A stretch of 64,000 bases of DNA from Candidatus Omnitrophota bacterium (lineage in GTDB: Bacteria; Omnitrophota; Gorgyraeia; Tantalellales; Tantalellaceae), in NCBI GenBank assembly GCA_024277375.1, contig JAJRVD010000025.1:19846-83845 (forward strand), in the 5' to 3' direction. Numbering within the stretch: position 1 is the first letter of the stretch; every line of letters starts with the position of its first letter. Below the pieces are notes generated by a model, which was given only the letters and a program-made list of their open reading frames with translations, ran no database searches and was not told the origin of the DNA. A program made the translations under genes and the position numbers. Positions 21,346-37,787 of this stretch are shown one piece after another.

Positions 21346-21367
21346 TAAGCCTAATTACATATTTCCG

Positions 21368-21394: not shown

Positions 21395-21399
21395 CCAAA

Positions 21400-21806: not shown

Positions 21807-22850
21807 TTAAGTCTTTTGTTTTAATATGGTTACAGAGGCTTGAAACACTTCCTCGTCGGTTACTGCTTGCAAGCATTCAAAGTGTCGTTCACAATTATGG
21901 GCAAGACATTTTTGACAGCCCACGTCTTTGTGCAACACCTTATCACTTTCGCCTAAAGGCCCCCACCGCAAGGGCGAAAGCCCCGGGTCACTCCGACCGA
22001 AAATAACTACTGTCGGAGTTCCAACAGCTACGGACACATGAACGGGACCGGAATCGTTAGAAATGAATAAACGGCAGCGAGAAAGAACTTCGGACAGTTC
22101 ACCAATAGACAATTTTTGTGTTAGATCAAAAGCCTTGGATCTTACTTCGGAGACGATTTGAGAACTATACGTTTTTGTTTCACCCGATCCCACAACAACA
22201 ATGTCACACCCATATTTTTCAACAAGCATATCGGCGACTTGAATAAAACGCTCGGGAGGCCATCGTTTTGACGGACAGCTGGCGCCGGGATGAAAAGCAA
22301 TAATGTTATCCCCTATCTCATTTTCCTCAAGAATAAAGTCGACACGTTTTTTTTGGCGCTCATCGGTCACTACATAAGGCAGACGATCCGCGCCATCCGT
22401 ATCCAATCCACATTTTTTTAAAAGATCGAAATTGTAATCTACCTCATGCTTTGTTCCTTCTTGTTTATCATGAAATATTTTTTCTGTTAGCAAACAGCCC
22501 ATTTTCCTGTCATATCCTATCCGGCGGGAGATCCCGGCCAAAAACAACATGACATGCACACGGTTCGTAGGATGAAGCGCTATCGCCATATCAAACCCTT
22601 TTTTTCTGAGTCTGAAAGCGAAGTTTATCGTACTCCAGAAACTTTTGTGAATGCCGCGCTTATCATAAATAATTACTTCATCAAGGTGGGGATTATTGGA
22701 AACTACGTCAAAGTTTTCCGGCCTTACCATAAAAGCAATGTACGCATCGGGGTTTTGTTCTCTCAGAAGGCGGATCGCCGGAGTTGAAAGCACGACGTCG
22801 CCGAGTCTATCGGTCCGTGTGATCAGTATACGTCGAGAATTGCCTGTCAT
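21807..22850 (-). CDS. ADP-heptose:LPS heptosyltransferase (GT9 family)
   Basis: 347 aa; GT9 N-terminal signature (ILIxRxxxLGDVVLSTPA) and C-terminal domain; lies within the LPS core cluster. Confidence 0.8.
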   Translation of the reverse strand: MTGNSRRILITRTDRLGDVVLSTPAIRLLREQNPDAYIAFMVRPENFDVVSNNPHLDEVIIYDKRGIHKSFWSTINFAFRLRKKGFDMAIALHPTNRVHVMLFLAGISRRIGYDRKMGCLLTEKIFHDKQEGTKHEVDYNFDLLKKCGLDTDGADRLPYVVTDERQKKRVDFILEENEIGDNIIAFHPGASCPSKRWPPERFIQVADMLVEKYGCDIVVVGSGETKTYSSQIVSEVRSKAFDLTQKLSIGELSEVLSRCRLFISNDSGPVHVSVAVGTPTVVIFGRSDPGLSPLRWGPLGESDKVLHKDVGCQKCLAHNCERHFECLQAVTDEEVFQASVTILKQKT

Positions 22851-22870
22851 GCCATCCTTTATCAGCGTTT

Positions 22871-22988
22871 AGATCCCTCCCCTCGCTTCGCTCGGTCGGG
22901 ATGACAGACTTTTTGTCATCCCATCGAGGCCCGAAGGTCCGGACATTGTCGTCCTGAGCGAGGCCTTCAGGCCGAGTCGAAGGATCTC
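22871..22988. repeat. type-2 GC-rich repeat (GTCATCCTGAGCG...GAGTCGAAGGATCTC), head-to-head dimer, solo
   Basis: AGATCCCTCCCCTCGCTTCGCTCGGTCGGGATGAC followed by GTCATCCC...CGTCCTGAGCGAGGCCTTCAGGCCGAGTCGAAGGATCTC; the same unit forms the tail of MITE copies 3, 7, 10 and 15. Confidence 0.7.
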
Positions 22989-23013
22989 ATTTTTAGCGTC
23001 TAGCGTACGCTAG

Positions 23014-23520
23014 TTATTTCGTTAGCTCTTCGTAAATTTTTTGGTACACATCAAGATCTCTCGCGCTAAAGCATACATACACTATACGATCAAAATCACC
23101 TCTGTGTTTTATGCCTTCTTCCAAAGCTATGCGTGTCGCTTCCTCAACAGGAAATCCGTAAATACCGGTACTTATGGCCGTAAAAGCGATCGTTCTCGAT
23201 CCATTTTCTATCGCGCACTTAAAGCTATTGATATAACAATTCCTCAATAACCCCGACTCGCCGGAATGACCACCGTACCATACGGGTCCCGGGGTATGGA
23301 TAATATTTCGCGCGAGGAGGTTTCCGGCAGTCGTAATGACAGCTTCTCCTGTTTCACATCCACCAATCCCTCGGCATTCTTCCATAACCGAAGGGCCCGC
23401 GGATCGATGAATAGCGCCATCAACACCACCTCCACCCTTAAGACCCGTGTTTGCGGCATTAACGATCGCGTCTACGTCTTCTTTTGTTATGTCACCCCGC
23501 TTAATAATGATCTGGCCCAT
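23014..23520 (-). CDS. macro-domain protein (O-acetyl-ADP-ribose deacetylase-like)
   Basis: Macro domain motifs (VNAANxxLxxGGGVDGAIH, ISTGIYG). Start at MGQIIIK; the ORF-track extension covers a palindromic repeat. Confidence 0.8.
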   Translation of the reverse strand: MGQIIIKRGDITKEDVDAIVNAANTGLKGGGGVDGAIHRSAGPSVMEECRGIGGCETGEAVITTAGNLLARNIIHTPGPVWYGGHSGESGLLRNCYINSFKCAIENGSRTIAFTAISTGIYGFPVEEATRIALEEGIKHRGDFDRIVYVCFSARDLDVYQKIYEELTK

Positions 23521-23532
23521 GACAGCCCCCCG

Positions 23533-23560
23533 GTAGGGACGTACTGCAATACGTCCCTGC
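23533..23560. repeat. REP-like palindrome type 3b
   Basis: GTAGGGACGTACTGCAATACGTCCCTGC between the macro-domain gene start and the upstream heptosyltransferase stop. Confidence 0.75.
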
Positions 23561-23590
23561 ATATTGTTTTATTCACTCCGTTACCTAATA

Positions 23591-24604
23591 TCAGCTACGT
23601 AACAAAATCTCTTTCGCGGCCCGAAAAACGTCTTCCAATACCACGTCTGTTATACATCCTTCCTCTGGTCCCTGGTCACATAACGCGTTTTCGCAAGGAC
23701 GACATGACTTGCGCGGCTTAAGGACCCTGCTTTCTTTCGCCAAAGGACCATATTTTCGCTCGTCGGATGGACCGAAAATAGCTACAGTGGGTGTGTTTAC
23801 CGCACTGGCTACGTGCATGGGAGCGCTATCATTCGTTATAAGTAGTTTGGCGGAACCTATAAGTCCGGCAAGTTCCGAAATGGATGTTTTGCCATGCAAA
23901 TCATTCACCGGCTCTTTCACTTCAGCTAGAAAATTTTCTATCACTTCCTCATCGTCTTCATTCCCGGTTACAATTATTCTACAGCCGAGTTCTGTTACCA
24001 GTTTATCAGAGAGTTTCGCGTACTTTGAAACATCCCATCGTTTCAGATGACTTTTAGCCCCGGGATTAATTACGACTAACTGTTTTTGTTTTCTTGAACC
24101 CATTATTCCACTGACAATATTTTTTTGAGTATTATCTACCGGCAGGTAAAACCTTGTTCCGAGAAACGCCTCTATCCCAAAGTCTAATAACTTCGAAAGA
24201 TGTTCTTCCTTTTTATGTTTTACGAATTCCTTCTCTCCACCGGTGAATATCTTTTTTTTCGTAAACACTAAATTCGATAAACCCGGACGAAAACGTGATC
24301 CTACAAGGAATGGGATCAGTGAATTTTTCAGATCCACAACAAGATCATATTTTTTGTCGCGCAGGTAGAGTATTTGCCGCATAGCCTCGGGAAGAGGCTG
24401 TTTCTTATTGTGGACGATAACTTCCCTCACACGAGAATGCCCCTCAAAGATCTCCTTGCCCGGCGCTCCGGTCAATATGTCTACGTCTGAGGAGGGAAAT
24501 TCGTCACATAATTTCTCTAAAACGGGAGTTGTTAATATAATATCTCCCAGATTGCTCAATGTAATAAACAGGATCGATTTAACTTTTTCTTTATCTATTT
24601 CCAT
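23591..24604 (-). CDS. heptosyltransferase-family glycosyltransferase (GT9)
   Basis: 337 aa; LGDIILTTPV N-terminal motif and C-terminal GT9 domain (NDSAPMH). Confidence 0.75.
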   Translation of the reverse strand: MEIDKEKVKSILFITLSNLGDIILTTPVLEKLCDEFPSSDVDILTGAPGKEIFEGHSRVREVIVHNKKQPLPEAMRQILYLRDKKYDLVVDLKNSLIPFLVGSRFRPGLSNLVFTKKKIFTGGEKEFVKHKKEEHLSKLLDFGIEAFLGTRFYLPVDNTQKNIVSGIMGSRKQKQLVVINPGAKSHLKRWDVSKYAKLSDKLVTELGCRIIVTGNEDDEEVIENFLAEVKEPVNDLHGKTSISELAGLIGSAKLLITNDSAPMHVASAVNTPTVAIFGPSDERKYGPLAKESRVLKPRKSCRPCENALCDQGPEEGCITDVVLEDVFRAAKEILLRS

Positions 24605-24623
24605 ATTTCCTTTGAATACCCGG

Positions 24624-25646
24624 TTAGCTCGCTAATACCTCTTCCGCGGCATTAAAGACCTCGTCTACAGTGACCGATCTCATACACTTATAATCCTTCT
24701 CACATTCCTCTGCATAGCAAGGCACGACACAATCTATACTTTTCTGGATCACAATGTTCCTTCCCTTACCCCTCGGCCCCGTAATCTCACGCGACGTTGG
24801 GCCAAAAATCCCTATCGTTGTTGTCCCGGTAGCCGAAGCCAGGTGAAGAGGCCCGGAATCCGCGCTTACAACAAGATCGCATTTCTCGAAAAGAACACCC
24901 AACTCTTTTAAATCTGTCTGACCCGCGACAGCATAACATCTCCCGGACCCTATCTCCTTAACTATACCCCCGACATATTTCACATCTTTCGCCGCGCCGG
25001 GTATCATTACTTCAATATCGTCGAAACGATCCAGCAATTTTTTTCCCAGTGAAATAAAATTCTCAACCGGCCATCTTTTGGCTATCCAATTGCCGCCGGG
25101 ATTAAGCGCTACCATTCTCTTTACCCCGCCTTTTACATTGTGAAGTATCACATTCGCCCTATCCCGCTCTTCCGGCTTGGAAAAATATTCATATGTCCCA
25201 TCCGCTTCCGTCACTCCAAATACACCTGCCAACATCAGGATCTGATCGGCTCTATGAATATTGCCCTTCGGCATTTCAACTTCTTTTGTTAAAGATGTCT
25301 TTTTTCCCGCGAATCCGACACGTTCAGGGATACCCGCCAAAACCGCCATGGCGGTTTTCATAGAGGAAGGTTTCAAAAGCAAACACGTATCATATCCTTC
25401 TTTTCGTATCATTCTGACAAACGCCATTTTATCGCCCAGTGAAGTGATCTTATTGCTGTCTGAAAGCGCGTGCACACTATTTATCCAGGGATTATTTGTC
25501 AATAGATCCGCGTATCTTGGCACAACAACACATGTTATATAAATATCCGGGAAAGTTTTTCTGATAGCACGCAATAGCTGAAAGGAAAATAAAATATCAC
25601 CCATCCAATTCAGCATAAAAATGATCATTCTTTCCGGTTTTTTCAT
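24624..25646 (-). CDS. heptosyltransferase-family glycosyltransferase (GT9)
   Basis: 340 aa; GT9 fold (MGDILFSFQLL ... ADSGPLHLA). Confidence 0.75.
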   Translation of the reverse strand: MKKPERMIIFMLNWMGDILFSFQLLRAIRKTFPDIYITCVVVPRYADLLTNNPWINSVHALSDSNKITSLGDKMAFVRMIRKEGYDTCLLLKPSSMKTAMAVLAGIPERVGFAGKKTSLTKEVEMPKGNIHRADQILMLAGVFGVTEADGTYEYFSKPEERDRANVILHNVKGGVKRMVALNPGGNWIAKRWPVENFISLGKKLLDRFDDIEVMIPGAAKDVKYVGGIVKEIGSGRCYAVAGQTDLKELGVLFEKCDLVVSADSGPLHLASATGTTTIGIFGPTSREITGPRGKGRNIVIQKSIDCVVPCYAEECEKDYKCMRSVTVDEVFNAAEEVLAS

Positions 25647-26749
25647 TACCTACCCAGAACCTCTTCATATACTTTTATCGTTTTCTCCACACTCTCTTCG
25701 ATCGAAAAATTATTATGCGCCTTCAGCTTCGCTTTTTCCGCGAAACGGCGACGAAGCGCCCGGTCCTTCAAAAGACGCGTAATGGCTTCCCCCACAGCTT
25801 CCGAGTCTCGCGGCGGCACCAATATTCCGTCCTCTTCATTTTTGATCAACTCCGCGAGCCCGCCTACATTGCTCGCGACACAGGCTCTCCCCGCGGCCAT
25901 AGCCTCCATTAAAGACAATCCCAATCCCTCATGTATGGACGGCAGACAGAAAATATCAATAGCCATAAAATGTCTTTCGAGCGGGACGCCACCCGGAGCA
26001 AAAGAAATACTACCCGCGATCCCCAGATCAACGGCCTGTTGCTCTAAAGCCTTCCTTTCCGGGCCATCACCAACAATAAGCAACTGGATATTATCATCTT
26101 CCGACAACGCGTATTTGAAAGCGTCAATAAGATATTTATATCCTTTGACGGAAGAAAGCCTTCCTACGGTTCCGACTATTGTTTTGCCGGGATCCAACCC
26201 TAAGCTTTCCTTGAATTCACTGCCGTTCTCAACGGTTATTTCTTTGTATTTACTGAGTTCTATGCCATTGTATACCAATTCTATCCGATCAGCGGAGACA
26301 CCCAGATCCTCCCGGAGGTGTTTATATACACTTTTACTGATCGCTATAGCTTTTTTTCCCCAACACGGCAACAATCTACGAAAGATCTTACGATGTCTGA
26401 AAAATCCATGACATGTCGAAACAAATGGTACGCCAGAGATCTTTTCCGCAAAAAAAGCGAGCACCTGCGTAACGCGTGTTTGAGCATGCACAACATCAAT
26501 GCCATTTTCTTTGATCAAACGCGTTAATGAAGGTATAGCTTTCCACATTTTTAATCCAAATTCGGATTTTGTCTTTATGTCCAGCGGAATATGGGCTATG
26601 CCCTCCTCTTTAAGTATACCTTTTAAATCTCCCCCGCTGGAAGCCACAGCGACATCCATACCGTTCTTTTTTAAATATTTGGCAAGACTTATCGTATAAA
26701 CGCCTACGCCGCCGGTATTTAAGTGTGTTGTAAGTAAGAGAATTTTCAT
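25646..26749 (-). CDS. glycosyltransferase family 4 (GT-B, RfaG-like)
   Basis: 367 aa; N-terminal GT4 region (KILLLTTHLNTGGVGVY) and C-terminal glycos_transf_1 domain (EGLGLSLMEAMAAG). Confidence 0.8.
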   Translation of the reverse strand: MKILLLTTHLNTGGVGVYTISLAKYLKKNGMDVAVASSGGDLKGILKEEGIAHIPLDIKTKSEFGLKMWKAIPSLTRLIKENGIDVVHAQTRVTQVLAFFAEKISGVPFVSTCHGFFRHRKIFRRLLPCWGKKAIAISKSVYKHLREDLGVSADRIELVYNGIELSKYKEITVENGSEFKESLGLDPGKTIVGTVGRLSSVKGYKYLIDAFKYALSEDDNIQLLIVGDGPERKALEQQAVDLGIAGSISFAPGGVPLERHFMAIDIFCLPSIHEGLGLSLMEAMAAGRACVASNVGGLAELIKNEEDGILVPPRDSEAVGEAITRLLKDRALRRRFAEKAKLKAHNNFSIEESVEKTIKVYEEVLGR

Positions 26750-26755
26750 GATATA

Positions 26756-28849
26756 TTAAGACTGCTTCATAACTTCCATCAAAGCATCAACAACTTTTTC
26801 AGGTTTGATCGAAGTTATACATTTTGATCTATCCTTACACGTCGGTTTATAACAGGGTGAACACTTTAAATTTTTATATAAAACTCTCATGTCTTCTGAC
26901 GGAGGAATATGCCTGTCGGGGTCTGTGGGACCAAAAAGGGCCACAAACGGCGTCCCGGTAGCGGCCGCCACATGCATAGGCGCGCTATCTCCCGTAACTA
27001 AAGCGTTACATCTCTCAATAAGGCTGATGAGTTGTGGAACATTCGTCTTCCCCACCGCGTCTATGGGTTTCGCTTCCGTCTTTTTGAGAAATTCCGCGGC
27101 ACACGGCCTGTCTTCTTCCGCCCCTAAAAGGACGACTCTCATCCCCTTATCACGAGCAAGTATCCGCGCCAATTCCACCATAGCCGGTACTCCCCAGTTT
27201 TTTGTCTCCCATCGTCTCGAGGCGGATAAGCTTAGAGCAACCAGTTTTTGTCCTTCTATCATCCATCGTTCTTTTAGAAACCTTTCGGCCCAAGCCTCAT
27301 TCGCGTCACCCGGCCATAATTCCAGGTTTTGTTTGATGCCTGTAATACCAAGAAGCCCCAAAACAAAGCTTTGATGTTTCACCGGTGTCATGGGTCTCCT
27401 CGGAACGCTGATTTTACGATTAAGAAGGAAACTTAACTTGCCATTATCATAGCCGAATCTTTCGGGTATCGCGCTTAAAAAAGAAAGAAGATGACTCTTG
27501 CGATTATTCTGAAGATCTATCGAAACATCAAAATCCTCTGCTCTTAATTTTCCGGCTAATTTTAAAAATCCGATCCCATTATCCCTGTTTTTAAAGTCAC
27601 CGGCAATGATCTCGTCGATATAGGGACAGTTGTCCAACAGCTCCCTGAAACGCACATCAACGAGGATCTTAATATTAGCGTTTTTAAAGCGGTTTCTAAC
27701 AGCGCGCAGCGAGGGAGTGCTGAGAATAATATCACCGAGCGAACTTATTTTAAAAATAAGTATATTTTTCAGACCAAAAACACGTTTGTACGCTTCCAGC
27801 GTCATAGTCATCGTTTTTTCCAGAGAATAATTCTCTTCCACATATTTCCTGGCATTTTCGGCAACTTTCATGACCAGATCGGGTTCCTCGGCATAACGCA
27901 TGATCTTGGCGGCCATATCGGTTGGATCTTTTGGCGCGCAGAAGAGACCCGTCAAACCATCATTTATATTTTCCACAACACCACCTATTCTGGTAGCTAC
28001 AACCGGAACACCCCTGGCCTGTGCCTCGATAATCGACCTTCCAAAAGCTTCCTGTTCACTGTTTGCGGAAACCAGGACATCTAACCCTCCAATAACATCC
28101 GCTACATCTTTAGTGCTATCAACAAATTTCACCGATCTTTCGATCATCAGGCGACGCATCGTAAGGCTGATCCTTCTAAGATACTCCTCCTTAGCGGACG
28201 TTCTGTCTCCCATCATAACGATCTCAACATCAGGGATCTTACGCAAAACGTGCGCCATGGCTTTCAGAAAATCCACATGACCCTTTAGCGGTGTAAACCG
28301 ACATATCATTCCTACCCGAAAAGGCTTACTTCTCGCGGCCGACGGGGGGACAAAGGAAAATTTCTTAAGATCCACGCCCCGGGGAATAATAGTGATCTTT
28401 TGCCGGGGTACATTGAAATTATCTTTCATGTACCTGGCCATCGTCTCATTGGCGGTAATAACAACTTTTCCCCACCCCATAACTTTACTGATCAGATGTT
28501 TTCTATATTGACCATGCGCGGTTGTAACAAATGTCTTCTGCAAAGAACGAGCGGCAAAGTAACCTATAAGTGCCGGAACCCTGCTTCTGCCGTGTACAAT
28601 ATCTATACTGTCCTTTCGAATGATATGCCTGAGCTTAAAGTAACAACGTATCATGACTAAAGGATTCTTACTGCCTACAGGAAGCGTATAATGGCGTCCC
28701 CCGATAGCGCTGAGATCTTTCTCCATGCGGCCACCTGCCGAGACCACTACCGCTTTATGACCGTTAAGGGTTAAGTACCGGGCGACTTCTATGGTCCCCT
28801 TCTCTACTCCACCGACATTAAGTTTTGGAACTAACTGTAAAATATTCAT
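26756..28849 (-). CDS. bifunctional glycosyltransferase: N-terminal GT4 fused to C-terminal GT9 heptosyltransferase
   Basis: About 700 aa; residues ~1-370 are GT4 (EAFGRSIIEAQARGVP); residues ~375-712 are GT9 (ILIFKISSLGDIILSTPSL ... GDSAPMHVAAA). Start set at MNILQLV to avoid overlap with the upstream gene. Confidence 0.75.
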   Translation of the reverse strand: MNILQLVPKLNVGGVEKGTIEVARYLTLNGHKAVVVSAGGRMEKDLSAIGGRHYTLPVGSKNPLVMIRCYFKLRHIIRKDSIDIVHGRSRVPALIGYFAARSLQKTFVTTAHGQYRKHLISKVMGWGKVVITANETMARYMKDNFNVPRQKITIIPRGVDLKKFSFVPPSAARSKPFRVGMICRFTPLKGHVDFLKAMAHVLRKIPDVEIVMMGDRTSAKEEYLRRISLTMRRLMIERSVKFVDSTKDVADVIGGLDVLVSANSEQEAFGRSIIEAQARGVPVVATRIGGVVENINDGLTGLFCAPKDPTDMAAKIMRYAEEPDLVMKVAENARKYVEENYSLEKTMTMTLEAYKRVFGLKNILIFKISSLGDIILSTPSLRAVRNRFKNANIKILVDVRFRELLDNCPYIDEIIAGDFKNRDNGIGFLKLAGKLRAEDFDVSIDLQNNRKSHLLSFLSAIPERFGYDNGKLSFLLNRKISVPRRPMTPVKHQSFVLGLLGITGIKQNLELWPGDANEAWAERFLKERWMIEGQKLVALSLSASRRWETKNWGVPAMVELARILARDKGMRVVLLGAEEDRPCAAEFLKKTEAKPIDAVGKTNVPQLISLIERCNALVTGDSAPMHVAAATGTPFVALFGPTDPDRHIPPSEDMRVLYKNLKCSPCYKPTCKDRSKCITSIKPEKVVDALMEVMKQS

Positions 28850-28850
28850 A

Positions 28851-30800
28851 TTAGAATAATCTGTACATCCTCTCGTACATCCGTTTATCATCATCAGGCA
28901 AAACGGTTTCGTTTTTGTCTTCTATGGCGCGAATCGTTTCTTTTCTTATCTCGCCCGCCTCTATACATTTGACGTATCCGTTCTTCGCGAGATCATTGAC
29001 AAACCGTTCATACTTGGTGACTTTCCTGGTTTTTTTCTCGGGCATGAAAACCAGGGTTGGCTTCCCGGAAGATACTGCCTCCGAAACCATCGAAATGCTT
29101 TCTCCCGAAACAACAACAACATCACTTTTCGCTAATATTTTTTCAACTGTATTTTTATCCTTATCTTGCACGCCTGAAACAAACTTACCTTTCACCTCTT
29201 TATTCTCAATATTTTCTTTGAGAATCGCTTCAATCTCTTTCGGTGTTCTTCGTGATGTAGTCACGTAAAAACCGCCCTCTATACCGACACACGCGTCACG
29301 TATTCCATCCGCTACAACTTTTGCCAGATCCTCGCCAAAACTGAAATGCGGATTGTCTCCGCCAAACAGCAAGCCAATACATTTTCGCTTGTCATCTGAC
29401 CCGCCCACCGTAGCTTCAGCGAGAGTGGGAGCCTCTATGTGTGCTTTTAGCCCTTCAGGGTCTATAAGATTAGGGGCTAGTTCCGTAACTATCACATTAT
29501 CTCTAACTTTTCCGCGCTGGTCATGTTTTGGCATAACTACAAGGTCAAAGCTCCTGCGATTGCCCCATCCCGGATCAAGCACAGTTACGTTTCGGGCATT
29601 ATTCTCTATTTTTATCATTTTATTAACCCCGAACAGTGTAGATCCGCAACTTATTATAACATCACCATACCGGCTACTTAGAACCTCGTAGCTTTCATTA
29701 GAAAGCGCCCGCTTTAAACATTTTAAACATCCCTGACAACGCCTGGTAAAAAACGGACTTATAGCGTTAAAAACAGCCTTGGCCCGCTTGCTTTTAAACT
29801 GAACTCTGAGGATATCAACTTCAACTTCCCCCTGCCGAAACCCTTCGTCTCTCCTATACATCTCGATCTGTTTAACAACCGCCAACGACTGTTTAAGATG
29901 CCCCTTTTTACCATCGTCCAGAACCATGATCTTTTTAACGGGGGTCAACTTCCATCTCTTATGCATCCAGAACCACTGTTCGGGATACGCCCTTATGTGC
30001 TTTTCGAGAAGCTTATTGTACCTTCGAGCATAAAGAGTAACATCCTCATCTTTTCCGACAACCATGGGTTCTTCCAGGATCAATTCCTGATAAGGTCCCT
30101 TGACCCGGTGAATAAACGCCGGTAATACCCATGCTCCGCTCTTTTGAGCGAATCGGTATGGACCAATGGCTGTTGATGCCGGCCGTCCGAAAAAATCTAT
30201 AAGCTTACCGCTGGTACCCGCGTTTTGATCCGCGAGAAGGCCCACGCTTCTCCCTTCACGAAGAAGCCGGAACATCCTCTTGATATCCATCCCCTTGCGA
30301 ATTACGGTAGCTCCTTTTGATTCCCGCAGCTGATTAAAAAGCTCATTAAGCCTTTTCATTTTCTGCTCTCGCGCCAAAATACACAATGTGTATCCCTTAA
30401 TAGCGCTTGCCGCCGTACTTAATTCCCAATTCCCAAAGTGCGCGGAAACCATTATCATACCCTTCGGGTTTTTCGATGCTTTCTCTATCCTTTCCATATT
30501 TTGGATCTTTATGTATTTATCAACATACTTCTCATCGACCTTTGTCAAAGAAACAAGTTCGGCAAAAGTCTGTGCCATATGTCTGTAAACACCTTTTGAG
30601 ATATGCTTTATCTCTTTTGGTGTTTTCTCCCGGCAGAATGCCGCTTTGAGGTTGGCATATGTTATCCCTATTCTCTTTCCACTCAAAAGACGCACAAGAT
30701 CCCCAAGACACCTGCCCAACCAAAGGTTAAATCCTATCGGCATGACATGAAGAAACCGGTTCAATCCCCTAACCAGAAATGACGCTATTAAGTCCAGCAC
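28851..30800 (-). CDS. LpxL-family lipid A acyltransferase fused to ELM1/DUF1022-like GT-B domain
   Basis: 649 aa; N-terminal ~290 aa are LpxL/HtrB-like (HFGNWE, WFWMHKRWK); C-terminal ~350 aa match the mitochondrial-fission ELM1-like bacterial family (TTSRRTP ... SMVSEA motifs). Confidence 0.7.
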   Translation of the reverse strand: MLDLIASFLVRGLNRFLHVMPIGFNLWLGRCLGDLVRLLSGKRIGITYANLKAAFCREKTPKEIKHISKGVYRHMAQTFAELVSLTKVDEKYVDKYIKIQNMERIEKASKNPKGMIMVSAHFGNWELSTAASAIKGYTLCILAREQKMKRLNELFNQLRESKGATVIRKGMDIKRMFRLLREGRSVGLLADQNAGTSGKLIDFFGRPASTAIGPYRFAQKSGAWVLPAFIHRVKGPYQELILEEPMVVGKDEDVTLYARRYNKLLEKHIRAYPEQWFWMHKRWKLTPVKKIMVLDDGKKGHLKQSLAVVKQIEMYRRDEGFRQGEVEVDILRVQFKSKRAKAVFNAISPFFTRRCQGCLKCLKRALSNESYEVLSSRYGDVIISCGSTLFGVNKMIKIENNARNVTVLDPGWGNRRSFDLVVMPKHDQRGKVRDNVIVTELAPNLIDPEGLKAHIEAPTLAEATVGGSDDKRKCIGLLFGGDNPHFSFGEDLAKVVADGIRDACVGIEGGFYVTTSRRTPKEIEAILKENIENKEVKGKFVSGVQDKDKNTVEKILAKSDVVVVSGESISMVSEAVSSGKPTLVFMPEKKTRKVTKYERFVNDLAKNGYVKCIEAGEIRKETIRAIEDKNETVLPDDDKRMYERMYRLF

Positions 30801-31812
30801 TGATCTTCTCCTCTCCCTCGGTAATATTGATCACAATGTCCAGTATAAAAAGTTTCTTTTCAACGGAAGAAACATCCAAGTCCTTCATTTTTACATAATC
30901 TTTCCGTGTAGTAATAATTTTTTCCACCCTGCTGCCTGCACATTTATCGCATATTCTGGAAATATCATCCTGCGTGTAACTATGATGATCCGCGTAATCT
31001 ATTCTCAAGACGCCGGCAACACCCAGAGTATTTGTTATAAATTCAAAATAATCGGGATCCCCTATCCCGCTCACAATACAGACTCTCTCACCTTTGAGAT
31101 CTTCCATAGAATAACCGCCACCCGCCGGGTCACTAAGCGCGGACGGCATATGGCGAGCTGTTACCACAGGTTTTCCGGGGGCTATCTTTTCTAACTTCTT
31201 TAAAATGAATCTTTTGCGTTCCTCTCCGGCCATATCGATCTTTGTAAGCACGAACATATCCGCCCGGTTAAGAGAGGATACCGGCTCCCGTAAGGTACCC
31301 CTGGGGAACAATGAATTGCTTCCGGAGAAGGAAACGCTATCCAACAGCACAATGTCCAGATCTCGCTTTATTCTCCTGTGCTGAAAACCATCATCGAGAA
31401 CAAGAACATTTTTTTCTTCCCGGGTGGCTCGCGCGGCGCTTAACACTCTATCCTGTCCCACAAAAACCGGAACACCCGGAAGATCTTCTTTGATCATACG
31501 GCATTCATCTTTGCCATATCCTCTGGTAAGCACCGCGGGAGCGGCATTCATCGAAAGAAGCCGATCCACGATATACATTACAAACGGCGTCTTACCCGTG
31601 CCTCCCAGGGTTATATTTCCAACACTTATGACAGATACTTTCACTTTATGTTGACGCCGCATCCCTGAACGAAATCCCCAATTTACAGAACCAACGGCGA
31701 TCGCGTAGACCCACGAGAGAACACGTAAAAAACCTTTCACGATAACGTGAGGAAACCCATTACGTTTATCTATCATAAGAGACAATATATACAATTTTAG
31801 CGATGCGAACAT
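30769..31812 (-). CDS. lpxK: tetraacyldisaccharide 4'-kinase
   Basis: LpxK homology with the P-loop VISVGNITLGGTGKTP; the true start is possibly the internal MIDKRNG. Confidence 0.85.
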   Translation of the reverse strand: MFASLKLYILSLMIDKRNGFPHVIVKGFLRVLSWVYAIAVGSVNWGFRSGMRRQHKVKVSVISVGNITLGGTGKTPFVMYIVDRLLSMNAAPAVLTRGYGKDECRMIKEDLPGVPVFVGQDRVLSAARATREEKNVLVLDDGFQHRRIKRDLDIVLLDSVSFSGSNSLFPRGTLREPVSSLNRADMFVLTKIDMAGEERKRFILKKLEKIAPGKPVVTARHMPSALSDPAGGGYSMEDLKGERVCIVSGIGDPDYFEFITNTLGVAGVLRIDYADHHSYTQDDISRICDKCAGSRVEKIITTRKDYVKMKDLDVSSVEKKLFILDIVINITEGEEKISAGLNSVISG

Positions 31813-31825
31813 AAGCTCTATTCTC

Positions 31826-31983
31826 TGTCATTCTGGCTGTGTCGTAATGTAAGGACTTGATTCATCAAGCCCGTTATGTCGGGTTCGCTAAGCTTGTCCC
31901 CGCGAAAGCGGGGATCGAACCCGATATAACATATTGTATACGGCCATTCGAAAAACAAATTGCGACACAGTCTGATCGCGAGG
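31826..31983 (+). repeat. MITE-like element, family A, copy 6, with a GC hairpin (TCCCCGCGAAAGCGGGGA) inserted in the core
   Basis: Arms conserved; the core centre is replaced or interrupted by a 21-bp GNRA-type hairpin; lies between lpxK and waaA. Confidence 0.75.
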
Positions 31984-31985
31984 GT

Positions 31986-33290
31986 TTATAAATACTCTTC
32001 AACTTTCTCTATCGTAACACTTACCGCTCCGGTATTTTCCTCTATAACTTTCCGCGCGCCTTCCGCCGCGCGGTCACGTTTTTCTGGATCATTCAAAAGT
32101 TCCTCTGTTAGATCCTTAAGGTGCCTTTTATCCTTTACCCGGAAGGCTGCGTTATGCTCCAGGAATATATCGGATACTTCGCGAAAATTAAACATATGCG
32201 GACCGAAAACAACTGCCTTACCCCATCTTGCCGCTTCAATCGGGTTCTGTCCTCCCTTTTTCACAAGACTTCCGCCAATAAAAACCACGGTAGCTATACC
32301 ATAAATATCCTTGAGATGACCTATCGTGTCGACGAGCAAAACATCGTAACCTGTGTCTTCAGCACTGCCTGATAAACAGCGACACTTTAGCCCCTCTTTT
32401 TCAACATGGATCTTTATGGCTTCGGCTCTCTCAATATGCCGTGGAGCTAAAACAAGTTTCAAATTCTTCCTGTCAGCTTTGAGGTCCTTATAGATGTCGA
32501 TGATCTCGTTCTCTTCGGGACAATGGGTGCTACCCGCGACAACGATCTCATCATTGGCATTAAAGCCCCACCGTTCCCTACCTGGTACCGCGTCGAAAGG
32601 AACGGGATCTTTTTCGTCAAATTTCATATTGCCGGTAACAAAAACTTTTTCTGACGAAGCGCCTAATTCCTGTATTCTTTCAGCATCCCGATCGGACTGC
32701 ATACAAAAACAACTAATACCCTTGAGAATACGCCTGGTTACAAACCTTATCTTCTTGTAATTCTCAAAGGACCCATCTGATATGCGACCATTAGCAATAA
32801 CAACCGGAACATCCTTCGAATACAATTCTTCCAGGAGATTAGGCCAGAGCTCCGTTTCTACCATCACATACAAACGAGGTTTCAAGAGACGTACCACACG
32901 AGCGGTTACCATCCTCATGTCTATCGGATAGTAAAATACGGCATCGACATTGCCGTTGGCAAGTTTTCGTATCATATTATTCCCGGTCTGTGTAGTTGTC
33001 GACACTATAACCGGAGTGTCTTTAAACTTACATTTGATGTCCGCGGCCAATTTTGCCGCCAAGGCCGCCTCCCCCACGCTCACCGCGTGTATCCAAACAG
33101 GATTGGAGAGTATCGTAACCTCTCTGGGCAAAAATCCAAGCTTTTGAAAAAAATCCCGGTGGGCTTTTCGCTTTACCAGAAGATACGGAATGTAAAAAAT
33201 GCTGAAAATTATAAAAAACAGATCGTATATTAATCTCATAGTAGCCTTGTCGGCGAATAGTCGTTGGTAAATAGTATTGGACCGGCTCAA
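31986..33290 (-). CDS. waaA: 3-deoxy-D-manno-octulosonic acid transferase (Kdo transferase)
   Basis: 434 aa; WaaA/KdtA family; N-terminal membrane anchor; alternative start at MRLIYDLFF (33239). Confidence 0.88.
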   Translation of the reverse strand: MSRSNTIYQRLFADKATMRLIYDLFFIIFSIFYIPYLLVKRKAHRDFFQKLGFLPREVTILSNPVWIHAVSVGEAALAAKLAADIKCKFKDTPVIVSTTTQTGNNMIRKLANGNVDAVFYYPIDMRMVTARVVRLLKPRLYVMVETELWPNLLEELYSKDVPVVIANGRISDGSFENYKKIRFVTRRILKGISCFCMQSDRDAERIQELGASSEKVFVTGNMKFDEKDPVPFDAVPGRERWGFNANDEIVVAGSTHCPEENEIIDIYKDLKADRKNLKLVLAPRHIERAEAIKIHVEKEGLKCRCLSGSAEDTGYDVLLVDTIGHLKDIYGIATVVFIGGSLVKKGGQNPIEAARWGKAVVFGPHMFNFREVSDIFLEHNAAFRVKDKRHLKDLTEELLNDPEKRDRAAEGARKVIEENTGAVSVTIEKVEEYL

Positions 33291-33317
33291 GACTATTCAC
33301 CATAAACCATTCACGCG

Positions 33318-34193
33318 CTACGCGCGTGGATGTGCTTTCGAGTATATCTCTTTTATACGTTTTGAACCGAGATGCGTATATATTTGTGTTGTCGATAAAT
33401 TTTTATGACCTAAAAGCTCCTGCACACTCCTGAGATCCGCGCCATTATTGAGCATATGGGTCGCGAATGAATGCCTGAGCGAATGCGGTGATATTTTTTG
33501 TTCTATCCCGCATTTAGTTATATATTTGTCAATAACTCGCCTTATGCTCCGATCAGTAAGGCGCGTGCCCCTCGCGTTAAGAAAAAGAGCTTTTACGGAA
33601 TCCTGCCCCTCGAGGCTTCTTTCTTTCAGATAATTCCGTAACGCGCTCCCGGCTTCCGATCCCAACAAGGTAAGCCGCTCTTTTTTTCCCTTACCTTTAA
33701 CTTTTGCCACTCCCGAGAGAAGATCCACATCCTGCTGATCTAGCTGAACCAATTCACTAACACGCATCCCCGTTGAATACAATATCTCCAGGATAGCCCT
33801 ATCTCGCAATCCAAGGATATTATCCGACAATGGCGAGGTTATAAACTTAAGCATCTTTTCGGTATCCAAAAATTCCGGCAAACGCCTATCCAGCTTTGGA
33901 GTAAAAATGCTATCCGCCGGATTTTGTGTTAAATATTTTTCCCTAAAAAGAAATCTAAAAAAAGAGCGTATCGCTCCCAGCTTTCTTACAACCGTACGTT
34001 TGGCGCAATTTCTCCCTTTAAGCTCCGCTAGGAAACGCCTGAGATCAAGGTGAGTTGTTTTTCTAGGATCTTTATCGTCCAAAAAATCAGCAAGCTCATT
34101 AAGGTCTGTCTTATAACACCGTAATGTATGCGCTGAATAGTTCTTCTCTATATCCAGATAAGAAACGAACTTCACAACGAAACGTTTCATCAT
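33318..34193 (-). CDS. tyrosine site-specific recombinase XerC/XerD
   Basis: 291 aa; phage-integrase catalytic domain with R...HxxR...Y (HSLRHSFATHML ... LGHKNLSTTQIYTH). Confidence 0.85.
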   Translation of the reverse strand: MMKRFVVKFVSYLDIEKNYSAHTLRCYKTDLNELADFLDDKDPRKTTHLDLRRFLAELKGRNCAKRTVVRKLGAIRSFFRFLFREKYLTQNPADSIFTPKLDRRLPEFLDTEKMLKFITSPLSDNILGLRDRAILEILYSTGMRVSELVQLDQQDVDLLSGVAKVKGKGKKERLTLLGSEAGSALRNYLKERSLEGQDSVKALFLNARGTRLTDRSIRRVIDKYITKCGIEQKISPHSLRHSFATHMLNNGADLRSVQELLGHKNLSTTQIYTHLGSKRIKEIYSKAHPRA

Positions 34194-36346
34194 TATTCAC
34201 CCTTCACGCCGCCATCACCATCTCCATTCTCTTTCTCGTCGGCAGCCGGAAGTGTTTTGGTAATAAACGTACATTTCGGATACTTCGTGCATCCATAGAA
34301 TGCGCCCCTTCGGGATCTTCGTTCTATAAGCTCACCATCACAGTCTTCGGTAGGACATTTAACTCCACTCGTTATCGATTTTGAGAACTTGCATTCAGGG
34401 AACGTTGAACAACTCATAAAACGTCCACGACGACCCCATTTTATCACAAGGGGCTTCCCGCACTCGTCACAAAACTCATCAGTCTCAATATCTTTGTGTT
34501 TGACCTTTTTTATGTTTTCTTGCGCCGCTTTAAGCATTTCCGAAAAGGGCCCATAAAAATCTCTCAATACGGCAACCTTGTCAATTTTCCCGTCTTCAAC
34601 ATCATCCAACTCATCCTCCATACCGGCCGTAAACGCGTCATCAACAATTTTCGGAAAATGCTCTACAAGTAATTTGTTTACCAACTCACCCAGTTCTGTC
34701 GGCTGCAAACTTTTCCCCAAACGCTTAACATAATTACGACGAATTATCGTTCTTATCGTAGGGGCGTATGTTGACGGTCTTCCTATCCCTTTTTCCTCAA
34801 GAATTTTAACGAGAGAAGCGTCCGTATAGCGTGGAGGCGGCTTAGTAAAATGCTGCCCCGGGATCAATTCCTCAAGATCGGTTTCTTCCAAAACTTCCAA
34901 CGGCGGCATCTCCGCCATATCCTCGCCTCTTTCTCCGTCATCAATATAAACACGAAGAAAACCGTCAAATTTGAGCTGCGCGCCACCGGCTTTAAACCTG
35001 TAGTCCCCCGCGTCAATACTGACGCTCAAAACAGAATAAAGCGCGTTTGTCATCTGGCTCGAAACAAATCTCTTCCATATAAGTTTGTAAAGCTTGATCT
35101 CGTCGTCATTAAGAAAAGGGGCGACATCGTCCGGATGACGAATGGGCAGTGTCGGCCTTATAGCTTCATGAGCTTCCTGGGCTCTCTTTTTTGATTTGTA
35201 TACCGGCGGCTTTTCCGGGCAATATTTGTCCCCGTACTTGTCCTTGATATACTGACGAACTTCCACTTGCGCGTCCTGAGAAATACGAACTGAATCTGTA
35301 CGCATGTATGTTATTAAACCTACGCTCCCCTCAGAACCCAGTTCAACCCCTTCATAAAGACTTTGCGCTATTCTCATGGAATTTGAAGCCGAAAAATTCA
35401 GTTTATTGAAAGCGTCCTGCTGCATAACAGAAGTGGTATATGGTGAACGCGGATAACTCTTTTTCTCTTTGCGGCTCACACTGCTCACTATAAATTTTTC
35501 TTTTTCTATCTCTTCGACTATTTTATTTACACTTTCCTCGTTTTGAATATGTATTTTTTCACCCTTGTGTTTTGCCAGCTTAGCTTCAAATGTAAGAGGC
35601 CCGTTATAACCCTCGGGGGGTGCTATTTTTTTCTTAAGACGCGCGACTAAACTCCAGTACTCCTCTTTTACGAAATTTTTTATATCCTCTTCCCTGTCTA
35701 CTATCAACCGAACAGCTATAGACTGCACTCTTCCGGCACTTAAGCCCCGTGTCACGTTTTTCCATAAAATGGGACTCAGTGAATACCCCACAATCCTGTC
35801 CATGATCCTTCTGGCCTGCTGGGCATTCACTTTCTCCATATCTAAAGTACGCGGATTTTCGAAAGCCTTTTTAACCGCTTTCGCCGTGATCTCATCGAAA
35901 CTTACTCTGTAAATTTCCGGATTTTTAGAATCGAGTTCATTTTTTAAATGCCAGCAAATAGCTTCCCCTTCTCTATCCGGGTCAGCCGCGAGGTATATTG
36001 CCTTTACAACTTTAGCTTCTTTCACCAGGCTGGTAAGATACTTTTTTCGCCCCTTCATAACCAGATATTCAGGCTCAAAATCCTTTTCAAAATCTATACC
36101 CATTCGGCCGGCGGGCAAGTCTATAATATGCCCCATGCTCGCGAGAACTTTGTATTCCCTACCCAGGATCTTATTTATAGTTTTTGATTTCGCCGGTGAT
36201 TCTACAATAACCAGATAGCCTGACCTTTTCTTTGGACTAGCCTTTCTCTTCGAAACGGCCTTTTTCTTAGCAGTGGTCTTTTTTACAGCTGGTTTTGCGG
36301 ATTTCTTTTTTGTATCCGATGTGGTTCCCTCTTTCTTAGTCGGCAT
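34193..36346 (-). CDS. topA: DNA topoisomerase I
   Basis: 717 aa; Lys-rich N-terminal tail; Toprim and topoisomerase IA core; C-terminal C4 zinc ribbons (CxxC pairs). Confidence 0.95.
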   Translation of the reverse strand: MPTKKEGTTSDTKKKSAKPAVKKTTAKKKAVSKRKASPKKRSGYLVIVESPAKSKTINKILGREYKVLASMGHIIDLPAGRMGIDFEKDFEPEYLVMKGRKKYLTSLVKEAKVVKAIYLAADPDREGEAICWHLKNELDSKNPEIYRVSFDEITAKAVKKAFENPRTLDMEKVNAQQARRIMDRIVGYSLSPILWKNVTRGLSAGRVQSIAVRLIVDREEDIKNFVKEEYWSLVARLKKKIAPPEGYNGPLTFEAKLAKHKGEKIHIQNEESVNKIVEEIEKEKFIVSSVSRKEKKSYPRSPYTTSVMQQDAFNKLNFSASNSMRIAQSLYEGVELGSEGSVGLITYMRTDSVRISQDAQVEVRQYIKDKYGDKYCPEKPPVYKSKKRAQEAHEAIRPTLPIRHPDDVAPFLNDDEIKLYKLIWKRFVSSQMTNALYSVLSVSIDAGDYRFKAGGAQLKFDGFLRVYIDDGERGEDMAEMPPLEVLEETDLEELIPGQHFTKPPPRYTDASLVKILEEKGIGRPSTYAPTIRTIIRRNYVKRLGKSLQPTELGELVNKLLVEHFPKIVDDAFTAGMEDELDDVEDGKIDKVAVLRDFYGPFSEMLKAAQENIKKVKHKDIETDEFCDECGKPLVIKWGRRGRFMSCSTFPECKFSKSITSGVKCPTEDCDGELIERRSRRGAFYGCTKYPKCTFITKTLPAADEKENGDGDGGVKGE

Positions 36347-37475
36347 TAAACACTCCCTTATTTGATCGTAAGTCCTTGCGAACGAAATTCTTACCTGCTT
36401 GTGCTTTCACTAACCCCTTTATTTCAAGTTTCATTAATATCTCCGATAACTTTCTGGGGTCAGTACTCGAACTTGCCGAAAGCTGGTCTATATGCAGTGG
36501 AACTTGTTCTTCCAGCATGCCCAGGACACCTCTTTCCTCTTCCCCAAGTCCATACATAACTAAAGATTCTTCCTTTGTTTTTACATCAATGTTTTGCGGT
36601 GCGGATATTTCAAATTCTTCCAGAATATCACCAACATGTAACACCAGTTTGGCACCGTTCTGTATAAGACGATTAGTACCCCTACTTGTAAGTGAATCCG
36701 CCCTTCCGGGAAAAGCAAAAACCTCCCTACCCTGGTCAAGCGCGAAATCAGCTGTTATCAAAGCGCCGCTTCTTTCGGCAGCCTCAACAACTACTACGCC
36801 CCTGGCCATGCCTGAAATTATCCTATTCCTTCTGGGGAAAGACGATTTACTCGGCATAGTATCGGAAGAATACTCAGTAATAACCGCGCCGTTGTAAGCT
36901 ATCGTCGAGACAAGTTTTTCGGATCCTTTGGGATAAATATGTCTGAACCCGCTTCCCATAACGGCAATTGTGCGCCCTCCCGCTTTTATTGCCCCTTTAT
37001 GCGCGGCCTGATCTATGCCTTTGGCCATACCGCTGATAACGGTTACACCCTTTTTAGCAAGATCAAATGCCAACCTTTCCGCCATCTTAAGCCCATACAA
37101 AGAACATCTTCGAGGCCCCACTATCGCCACTGCCTCAGCGTCGACCGGCCTCAGACTTCCCTTGCAAAAAAGCACGGGCGGCGGATCATAAATATTTTTT
37201 AAAGATTCCGGATAAGCTCTATCAAAACAACATATCGGATGGATGTCTTCCGAATCCATATAAGTCATTTCCTCCGCGTAAACTCGCGACTTTCTTACAT
37301 CCGACATCTGCTCTATCCCTCCGTAACGCAATCCTGTTAGCTCTGCCAGGCGAGCGGGAGCCAGCGAAAAGATCTCTTCGGTATTCTGAGTGTTTTTCAA
37401 TAACGTCATTATTCTTTTGGGACCAAGCCCTTCCAATAAATTCAAAGCCACTATATCCCGACATGTTTTATTCAT
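36336..37475 (-). CDS. dprA: DNA processing protein DprA (Smf)
   Basis: 379 aa; DprA Rossmann-like domain (GMAKGIDQAAH ... GALITA); canonical dprA-topA adjacency. Confidence 0.9.
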   Translation of the reverse strand: MNKTCRDIVALNLLEGLGPKRIMTLLKNTQNTEEIFSLAPARLAELTGLRYGGIEQMSDVRKSRVYAEEMTYMDSEDIHPICCFDRAYPESLKNIYDPPPVLFCKGSLRPVDAEAVAIVGPRRCSLYGLKMAERLAFDLAKKGVTVISGMAKGIDQAAHKGAIKAGGRTIAVMGSGFRHIYPKGSEKLVSTIAYNGAVITEYSSDTMPSKSSFPRRNRIISGMARGVVVVEAAERSGALITADFALDQGREVFAFPGRADSLTSRGTNRLIQNGAKLVLHVGDILEEFEISAPQNIDVKTKEESLVMYGLGEEERGVLGMLEEQVPLHIDQLSASSSTDPRKLSEILMKLEIKGLVKAQAGKNFVRKDLRSNKGVFNAD

Positions 37476-37530
37476 ACATCACCCACTCCTTCACTTTAAG
37501 CCACAGAGCGCTTTATGCCTTAACACCCCT

Positions 37531-37745: not shown

Positions 37746-37787
37746 ATACAATTTATGTTCGCTTCGCTCCATAAAATGTTTCTTCAT

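Follow-up and report, generated by a model that had tools for sequence, protein, structure and literature searches.

A putative bifunctional lipid A enzyme of Candidatus Omnitrophota: fusion of an LpxL-type acyltransferase with an ELM1/KdoT-like GT-B domain

Analysis of a 64,000-nt stretch of contig JAJRVD010000025.1 from a Candidatus Omnitrophota bacterium (hereafter the window) revealed, on the minus strand at 28851..30800, a gene for a 649-aa protein in which an LpxL-type late lipid A acyltransferase is joined end to end with a domain of the ELM1/GtrOC1/KdoT family, so that two complete enzymes stand in one chain. We propose, with a probability of about 0.6, that this protein is a bifunctional enzyme that finishes Kdo-lipid IVA (Kdo, 3-deoxy-D-manno-oct-2-ulosonic acid) by secondary acylation and by addition of a further sugar, most likely Kdo. 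Each half is a member of a known enzyme family, and the novelty lies in how the two are combined and how widely: the LpxL::KdoT-like fusion spans the phylum, an LpxK::KdoT-like fusion is derived from it, and the domain is also joined to a GT9 enzyme. We found no description of any of the three (LpxL-ELM1, LpxK-ELM1 and GT9-ELM1) in the literature searched. The domain identities, the integrity of the motifs, the folds, the homology to KdoT, the conservation and the synteny reported below are direct observations.

Architecture of the fusion

The open reading frame (ORF) is uninterrupted, and Pfam searches of its product confidently identified both PF03279 (Lip_A_acyltrans, aa 7-284, E=1e-52, 179.6 bits against a cut-off of 22.3) and PF06258 (Mito_fiss_Elm1, aa 300-621, E=2.5e-48, 165.2 bits against a cut-off of 27). 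With scores far above the curated cut-offs, these matches bear out the original prediction, made from the letters of the window, of an LpxL-type N-terminal half and an ELM1-like GT-B (glycosyltransferase fold B) C-terminal half, for which the GT-B fold is also given by modelling. The two motifs it named in the C-terminal half are present (TTSRRTP, aa 514-520, and SGESISMVSEA, aa 565-575), the gene does lie between lpxK and the GT4::GT9 gene according to ORFs and Pfam matches, and the second lpxL paralogue it placed in the window is likewise found (LpxL2, PF03279 E=1.2e-52; coordinates of all features are given in Table 1).

The acyltransferase part stops at ..HKRWK, the point at which the standalone LpxL2 also terminates (..NRWKTKKV), and beyond a linker of about four residues the GT-B domain opens with the β1 strand KKIMVLDDGKKGH, to be compared with the authentic start of KdoT, MHIVYVSDGKAGH. 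In the AlphaFold2 (AF2) model, DSSP assigned a strand to aa 289-295, which is the first strand of the GT-B domain. Among 5.8 billion protein clusters searched, at least 120 (43-66% identity) showed both domains in this arrangement, with 100% of the length covered; they stem from NCBI, ENA, JGI and Logan assemblies, and those with a source name all come from Candidatus Omnitrophota/Omnitrophica. The N-terminus MLDLIAS and the junction HKRWK-xTPxKK-xxVLDDGKKGH are kept across the homologues (alignments of 37 and 94 sequences).

The acyltransferase domain

The PF03279 match covers positions 16-294 of the 295 positions of the hidden Markov model (HMM). In addition to the HX4E dyad, the DQNAG motif is invariant in the 94 homologues at 43-66% identity. 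Foldseek searches of the Protein Data Bank (PDB) matched the N-domain to LpxM of Acinetobacter baumannii (5KNK, E=4e-14; 5KN7, E=1e-13; template modelling (TM) score normalised to the target 0.67-0.68) and to mycobacterial PatA (TM score 0.81-0.85). Thus, the domain resembles LpxL, LpxM and LpxP (PF03279; LpxM structure 5KN7) in profile, HX4E dyad, fold and the context of lpxK and waaA; it differs from them in that only the fusion bears a C-terminal GT-B domain and in that it scores below every NCBIfam equivalog cut-off (17 matches to specific LpxL, LpxM or LpxP models, best NF006270, 162.8 versus 248). LpxL2 and the fused N-domain share 30% identity.

The ELM1/KdoT-like domain

GtrOC1, encoded by the first gene of the Acinetobacter outer-core (OC) locus beside ilvE, was already a Mito_fiss_Elm1 protein in the work of Kenyon et al. 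2014, where further Mito_fiss_Elm1 paralogues of the OC loci (GtrOC14, 19a-c and 22) were predicted to be outer-core transferases and a mis-annotation as "nucleoside-diphosphate sugar epimerase" was mentioned (PMC4172580). Deletion of the corresponding gene A1S_2903 in A. baumannii, whose product was annotated as an ELM1-like fission protein, truncates the lipooligosaccharide to Kdo2-lipid A (mBio 2024, PMC10936431), and A1S_2903/GtrOC1 has since been renamed KdoT, a CMP-Kdo:Kdo2-lipid IVA KdoIII transferase in vitro (CMP, cytidine monophosphate; JBC, December 2025, PMC12856342); both KdoT papers come from one group (PMC10936431, PMC12856342). According to the second paper, KdoT alone transfers Kdo in vitro, prefers Kdo2-lipid IVA and is unable to put Kdo on lipid IVA; the SRRT motif is invariant in the homologues aligned there, its arginine is proposed to hold the Kdo carboxylate and R180 is required for activity (PMC12856342). 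No single catalytic base was identified, H13 was stated as not conserved outside Acinetobacter and the single H13A mutant is still active, the homologues given are only those of Acinetobacter and Rickettsia, and the distant Rickettsia homologue, from another proteobacterial class, partly complements the loss of KdoT (PMC12856342). The label "function unknown" that the original prediction gave to the ELM1-like family is therefore outdated by the assignment of 2024-2025.

The authentic KdoT was taken, via a tblastn match, from A. baumannii chromosomal sequence that is labelled as a plasmid in PLSDB (CP040041.1; our locus L081, 5980..6870). The recovered protein has 296 aa, its gene lies directly after ilvE (branched-chain aminotransferase) at the head of the OC locus, and we identify it as KdoT because D8, H13, H109, D110, R179 and R180 match the numbering of the paper exactly. 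As a side observation, the PLSDB "plasmids" of 0.56, 3.66 and 3.97 Mb (CP040041.1, NZ_CP077849.1 and NZ_CP064203.1) are A. baumannii chromosomal sequence, and the authentic KdoT is labelled "nucleoside-diphosphate sugar epimerase" in PLSDB records.

KdoT scores 203.5 bits on the PF06258 model. BLASTP aligned it collinearly with the C-domain of the fusion (26% identity over 291 columns, E=2e-12), and hhalign, run with a profile built from 17 divergent relatives, confidently confirmed the relationship to KdoT (probability 99.75%, E=2.3e-27, 261 columns). The motifs pair as DGKAGH/DGKKGH (H13=H301), MPEHD/MPKHD (H109-D110=H426-D427), LGG/FGG (G480-G481) and TEDSVSMVFEA/SGESISMVSEA, and the heptad TTSRRTP is identical in the two proteins (KdoT aa 176-182; R180=R518). 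All of them (DGKxGH, PxHD, GG, SRRT and SxSMxSE) hold in the 17 relatives, at 27-39% identity. H301 (codon 29898..29900), the equivalent of the histidine that was reported as confined to Acinetobacter, is invariant in the 94 Omnitrophota sequences and in the 17 divergent relatives; H301/KdoT H13 may deserve another look as a catalytic residue. Besides PF06258, the collinear alignment, the SRRT heptad and the equivalents of D8/H13 and H109/D110, the domain shares with KdoT the GT-B fold, the context of genes for the core of lipopolysaccharide (LPS), and a GT4 enzyme acting or encoded beside it. It differs in that KdoT is a standalone protein of 296 aa encoded in a variable OC locus by ilvE, whereas here the domain is fused to LpxL and its gene follows waaA and lpxK within an operon for lipid A. 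KdoT also lacks the helical insertion of about 50 aa carried by the Omnitrophota C-domain; this insertion occurs in LpxL-fused, LpxK-fused and standalone relatives, and its cysteines are not invariant.

AF2 models built on the 94-sequence alignment were of high confidence both for the full-length protein (mean predicted local distance difference test (pLDDT) 92.9; predicted TM score (pTM) 0.89) and for the C-domain only (pLDDT 94.8; pTM 0.92), and the high pTM of the two-domain model suggests a defined packing between the domains. According to DSSP, the conserved motifs sit on strand-to-helix loops, as the cleft of a GT-B enzyme would have them. Foldseek searches of the PDB with the C-domain reported more than 100 GT-B structures at probability 1.00, with TM scores of only ~0.5 (UrdGT2, MGD1, BshA, MshA, MurG and WecB, i.e. 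glycosyltransferases and UDP-GlcNAc 2-epimerases (UDP, uridine diphosphate; GlcNAc, N-acetylglucosamine)), which repeats the generic GT-B picture of the noisy full-length run; neither model was specifically placed in GT19, GT30, GT9 or GT28. At the sequence level, none of the PDB chains matched the C-domain significantly (best E=1.1), and the domain is to be regarded as a GT-B enzyme of a family without a solved structure. WaaA (KdtA, GT30) and LpxB (GT19) are likewise GT-B enzymes acting on lipid A precursors, and WaaA is likewise a user of CMP-Kdo; they differ from the C-domain in that the fusion protein has no match to PF02684 (LpxB) or PF04413 (WaaA) at E<=0.01, both are missing from the top 50 structural matches, and the operon has a waaA gene of its own. 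The reassignment to a known enzyme such as LpxB, which would have spoken against an ELM1-like domain, was thus not found. Plant ELM1 (ELONGATED MITOCHONDRIA 1), after which the Pfam family is named, shares PF06258; it is a factor of the mitochondrial outer membrane with a role in recruiting DRP3A and is not known to be an enzyme (PMC10936431); the name ELM1 is misleading for the bacterial proteins.

Distribution and variants of the fusion

With the C-domain as the query, HMMER retrieved 2169 relatives at E<=1e-3 (151 at E<=1e-30) in an exhaustive search of 1.84 billion representative proteins. Among the best 150, an LpxL-type N-terminal part was present in 110 and about 20 were full-length standalone proteins, the rest being fragments or other fusions. 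When one genome for each GTDB species was scanned with a 5-sequence alignment as the query, at least 530 loci were obtained. Of the 80 best, which we retrieved, 57 carry the label Omnitrophota, 22 belong to ENA bins named "uncultured Planctomycetia" and one comes from a metagenome-assembled genome (MAG) of Oryzomonas (Geobacterales). The "Planctomycetia" bins share synteny with the Omnitrophota loci, and in the tree the two are intermingled. The order topA-xerC-waaA-lpxK-[lpxL::ELM1]-[GT4::GT9]-GT4-GT9-GT9-GT9 is found almost everywhere, with the LpxL-ELM1 fusion in 70 of the best 80 loci and the GT4::GT9 partner gene in nearly all related ones, so that comparison of related genomes, which had been suggested as a check on the original prediction, shows the two domains fused within a conserved operon.

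In seven loci (L058-L060, L063 and L065-L067) the operon slot holds no lpxL and is occupied by an lpxK::ELM1 gene instead (products of 708-739 aa, e.g. P0137, P0154 and P0191; L067, 6921..9056), and these loci include a single-cell genome (L063) and a closed chromosome (L067). A neighbour-joining tree of ELM1 domains places the seven LpxK-fused loci in one clade nested inside the LpxL-fused forms, and therefore the LpxK fusion is secondary; judging from this tree and the gene content, the glycosyltransferase domain was retained in the LpxK-fused subclade while the acyltransferase module was lost. P0265 (736 aa, from a JGI metagenome) combines a GT9 heptosyltransferase (PF01075, E=4e-58) with an ELM1/KdoT-like domain (E=1e-55). 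The LpxK-ELM1 and GT9-ELM1 proteins are thus alike in carrying a C-terminal ELM1/KdoT-like domain on an enzyme of lipid A or the inner core, while the partner differs; the LpxK-ELM1 fusion occupies the same operon slot as LpxL-ELM1. Between waaA and lpxK::ELM1, L067 has two inserted genes, one for a CBS-domain protein and one for a cation-antiporter-like membrane protein.

One locus (L023, 7119..9083) looked like an unfused two-gene state, and was rejected as such: a single in-frame TGA at about 8028..8033 replaces a conserved Leu (LKQS-L-AVV) in the GT-B domain, which may reflect a nonsense mutation, recoding of the codon or an error in sequencing. Another (L062) starts at a contig edge and is uninformative on the state of the fusion. 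In the Oryzomonas MAG (L040, NZ_JARLHN010000033.1, 4602..14079) the order is lpxL-lpxA-lpxB-ELM1-CAAX protease-GT4-GT2-GT2 with ELM1 standalone, and since this ELM1 gene follows lpxL-lpxA-lpxB, the association of ELM1 with lipid A genes reaches a second phylum. The neighbour-joining tree places the L040 domain together with one from Omnitrophota (L028), which may be due to horizontal transfer or to mis-binning. The operon is generally fusion-prone, as other joined forms were seen in loci of differing lineages (WaaA-LpxK, 853 aa, in L047; GT4b::GT9b in L053; GT9::GT9 of ~676 aa; L047, L053, L070-L072 and L078-L080).

Proposed function and alternatives

In the mechanism that we propose, catalytic activity, acceptor, donor, order of the reactions and channelling are predicted. 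LpxK and WaaA, encoded just upstream, would make Kdo-lipid IVA, on which the membrane-associated fusion would act with two active sites, both on the cytoplasmic side of the inner membrane. The HX4E dyad (H121/E126) of the N-domain would add the secondary acyl chain. In the C-domain, which is very probably a catalytically active glycosyltransferase on Kdo-lipid A or the inner core, the C-terminal Rossmann subdomain (GGDN, TSRRT and SxSMxSE loops) would bind the nucleotide sugar, and the N-terminal GT-B subdomain (DGKKGH and PKHD loops) would hold the Kdo region, where the sugar would be transferred. As to the donor, CMP-Kdo is the candidate suggested by the similarity to KdoT, and we give it an even chance; its product would be a lipid with Kdo beyond the residues added by WaaA, and this could serve as the acceptor for building of the core by the downstream GT4::GT9, GT4 and GT9 enzymes. 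The whole supply pathway for CMP-Kdo is encoded near the fusion, since kdsC-like, kdsD, kdsA and kdsB genes lie at 16951..20139. E. coli LpxL requires the Kdo disaccharide on its substrate. Because KdoT in turn prefers Kdo2-lipid IVA, the two domains would share one acceptor, and the end-to-end join would co-localise enzymes that use the same lipid at the membrane and would fix their dosage at 1:1.

Several observations weigh against this assignment or limit its detail. The C-domain is only 26% identical to KdoT, and its insertion of ~50 aa has no KdoT counterpart. The donor is not readable from family membership, as the OC-locus paralogues GtrOC14, 19 and 22 may use other donors (PMC4172580). 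The number of Kdo residues added by this WaaA could be one, two or more. The NCBIfam LpxL models remain below their equivalog cut-offs, which leaves the acyl chain and its position unassignable. The N-terminal segment is only moderately hydrophobic (highest 19-residue Kyte-Doolittle mean 1.23), and a true transmembrane anchor is therefore uncertain.

The same architecture and acceptor would also accommodate a C-domain that acts as an ELM1-family core glycosyltransferase with another sugar (hexose, hexuronic acid, N-acetylhexosamine or heptose), transferred to Kdo or lipid A. Such a role is suggested by the paralogues GtrOC14, 19a-c and 22 that the OC loci carry beside GtrOC1 and that are predicted for other outer-core linkages (PMC4172580), by the low identity to KdoT together with the insertion, and by the structural neighbours, which use UDP- or dTDP-sugars (dTDP, deoxythymidine diphosphate). 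We regard it as a serious, though less likely, alternative, given that the sole biochemically characterised member uses CMP-Kdo and that the Rickettsia homologue can partly make up for the loss of KdoT despite its origin in another proteobacterial class (PMC12856342), while the SRRT arginine, the proposed holder of the Kdo carboxylate, is invariant in the Omnitrophota set and the gene directly follows waaA and lpxK, i.e. the Kdo stage, and precedes the GT4/GT9 array. A non-catalytic scaffold or regulator that tethers LpxL or LpxK, comparable to plant ELM1 in the recruitment of dynamin, seems highly improbable: all cleft motifs are invariant down to 27% identity, which is hard to reconcile with such a role, the domain is kept with varied fusion partners as well as standalone, and KdoT alone catalyses Kdo transfer in vitro (PMC12856342), even though the plant members are not known as enzymes, an assistive role for A1S_2903 was raised in 2024 before the biochemistry (PMC10936431) and KdoT has no single catalytic base (PMC12856342).

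Slightly less credible still is the replacement of LpxB by the C-domain, or its action as a second WaaA-type transferase that initiates Kdo addition. LpxB, WaaA and the C-domain have the GT-B fold in common, and lpxB was not found in the window; against this stand the profile searches (E<=0.01) and structural searches (top 50 matches), in which neither enzyme was matched, the bona fide waaA two genes upstream, the inability of KdoT to add Kdo to lipid IVA (PMC12856342) and the Oryzomonas locus, where lpxB and an ELM1 gene coexist as neighbours, whereas absence from 64 kb says little for a larger genome. Finally, possible indels elsewhere in the window (trigger factor, chorismate synthase and shikimate dehydrogenase; see below) raise the question of whether the fusion itself results from a frameshift, a missed stop or a chimeric assembly of adjacent genes. 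As the same ORF, architecture and N-terminus recur in at least 120 clusters from four sources, the fusion is not an assembly artefact; with the continuous ORF in 70 of the best 80 genome loci, the conserved junction, and the related LpxK-fused form in a single-cell genome and a closed chromosome, the probability of this explanation is negligible.

We thus favour the bifunctional enzyme of secondary acylation and sugar addition. A bolder version of it, which we consider doubtful, is that the ELM1/KdoT-like step is an ancient and obligatory gate from lipid A completion to core extension throughout the phylum, with the domain always fused to the preceding late lipid A enzyme (LpxL, or LpxK once lpxL is lost), retained even where the LpxL module has gone, and forming a rigid two-site machine that channels Kdo-lipid IVA between secondary acylation and WaaA-independent Kdo addition. 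If true, the Kdo region of Omnitrophota LPS should be branched or extended, and the KdoT-like step would be no peculiarity of Acinetobacter and Rickettsia.

Significance and annotation

The original prediction had also proposed intermediates of lipid A or the inner core as the substrates of the ELM1-like domain, and the fusions with LpxK and GT9, as well as the lipid A/core operons, support it; the proposal agrees with the function of KdoT, yet its novelty is lowered because the function of the family has now been assigned. In 2025, biochemistry placed the bacterial "mitochondrial fission ELM1" proteins among the lipid A-core glycosyltransferases, and the comparative genomic data support this independently: on at least three occasions the domain was joined to an enzyme that works on lipid IVA or the inner core. 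The range of the family is extended from two proteobacterial classes to Omnitrophota and Desulfobacterota. The fusion corroborates and extends a fresh biochemical finding, overturns nothing and opens no long-standing question. It leads to the prediction that the LPS of the uncultured, partly ultra-small Omnitrophota bears a sugar, probably Kdo, that is added independently of WaaA.

The fusion architecture is already visible in databases, where automatic names cover one half only, which exposes a systematic problem of annotation. The NCBI Prokaryotic Genome Annotation Pipeline (PGAP) calls the fusion proteins "ELM1/GtrOC1 family putative glycosyltransferase" (in older records "mitochondrial fission ELM1 family protein"), and JGI calls them "Kdo2-lipid IVA lauroyltransferase", after the N-terminal half.

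The operon and the window

The genes around the fusion, listed in Table 1 with its domains and motifs, form a set for LPS synthesis and transport that also includes a PfkB-type sugar kinase; in all, the window encodes four standalone GT9 proteins and one fused GT9, and one standalone GT4 and one fused GT4. The GT4 half of the GT4::GT9 protein might, by analogy with the KdoT/GnaT pair, be the counterpart of GnaT. Translation of the GT4::GT9 gene probably begins 15 codons downstream of the listed start (MMINGCTRG), at MNILQLVPK, in which case it would nearly abut the fusion gene. The 291-aa protein encoded between lptB and lpxL2 (12679..13554, minus strand) has LptC and LptA/OstA (LptD_N) domains and may be an LptC-LptA fusion. 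Searches of the 64-kb window with the L040 proteins (tblastn) found neither lpxA nor lpxB, a result of little weight for a fragment of a larger genome.

Table 1. Positions of the fusion gene, its domains and motifs, and of the neighbouring genes in the window.
Feature	Coordinates	Strand	Evidence and remarks
lpxL::ELM1/kdoT-like fusion gene, complete	28851..30800	minus	GTG start, 649 aa, TAA stop at 28851..28853; ORF, Pfam, homologues, AF2
LpxL-type late lipid A acyltransferase domain, aa 7-284	29949..30782	minus	PF03279; Foldseek matches to LpxM and PatA
AHFGNWEL with HX4E catalytic dyad H121/E126	30420..30443	minus	H121, W125 and E126 invariant in 94 aligned fusion proteins
Linker LTPV, ~4 residues, aa 285-288	29937..29948	minus	joins the LpxL C-terminus ..HKRWK to GT-B strand 1, KKIMVL; alignment, DSSP
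ELM1/GtrOC1/KdoT-family GT-B glycosyltransferase domain, aa 289-649	28854..29936	minus	PF06258, KdoT alignments, AF2, Foldseek
DDGKKGH loop after β1, GT-B N-subdomain (D296, G300, H301)	29898..29918	minus	invariant in 94 sequences and 17 divergent relatives; KdoT D8-H13
Helical insertion of ~50 aa, about aa 326-378, including CQGCLKC	29667..29825	minus	gap in KdoT in both alignments
MPKHD (H426, D427)	29520..29534	minus	KdoT H109-D110; at least 90% conserved; P-H-D invariant in the divergent set
GGDN loop after first strand of donor-binding subdomain (G480, G481)	29352..29363	minus	invariant; aligns with KdoT LGGSS
TTSRRTP, family SRRT motif, aa 514-520	29241..29261	minus	S516, R517, R518 and T519 invariant; R518 = KdoT R180
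SGESISMVSEA strand-loop-helix, aa 565-575 (S568, S570, M571, S573, E574)	29076..29108	minus	invariant; KdoT TEDSVSMVFEA
waaA (Kdo transferase, GT30), two genes upstream	31986..33290	minus	PF04413 E=4.6e-57; NF004388 E=4e-99, below cut-off
lpxK (lipid A 4'-kinase)	30769..31812	minus	32-nt overlap with the fusion start; PF02606 E=1.7e-70; TIGR00682 above cut-off
GT4::GT9 fusion gene, directly downstream	26756..28894	minus	Pfam; GT9 half heptosyltransferase II-like, TIGR02195 155.7 bits versus 134.6
GT4	25646..26749	minus	Pfam, synteny
GT9	24624..25646	minus	Pfam, synteny
GT9	23591..24604	minus	Pfam, synteny
Macro-domain gene amid the GT9 array	23014..23562	minus	PF01661 E=1e-39
GT9	21807..22850	minus	Pfam, synteny
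kdsB	19354..20139	minus	Pfam
kdsA	18513..19385	minus	Pfam
kdsD	17545..18516	minus	Pfam
kdsC-like HAD	16951..17523	minus	Pfam
Standalone lpxL paralogue (LpxL2)	13556..14446	minus	PF03279 E=1.2e-52; adjoins lptC/lptA-like and lptB genes
lptB, lptC/lptA-like gene, lpxL2	11945..14446		Pfam
lptF and lptG	58077..60256		Pfam

Other parts of the window show a few features of their own. The trigger factor is distributed over two ORFs at 9794..11068 (Trigger_N and FKBP, 240 aa; Trigger_C, 178 aa), which points to a possible frameshift, and two genes are possibly truncated (39877..40632, chorismate synthase, HMM positions 1-235 of 327; 42173..42784, shikimate dehydrogenase, N-domain only); the split and truncated genes could be due to indels in the assembly or could be real pseudogenes. 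The 504-aa protein encoded at 37788..39302 (minus strand) has an unusual architecture of shikimate kinase, PAS and HD (HD_5, HD-GYP-like) domains. A 1610-aa ORF (49012..53844) and a 247-aa ORF (53959..54702), both on the minus strand, have no Pfam match at E<=1e-3. Almost all long family-matched ORFs in positions 1..64000 are on the minus strand, and each 2-kb bin has a negative GC skew (-0.09 to -0.25); the window as a whole looks like one replichore arm with co-oriented genes.

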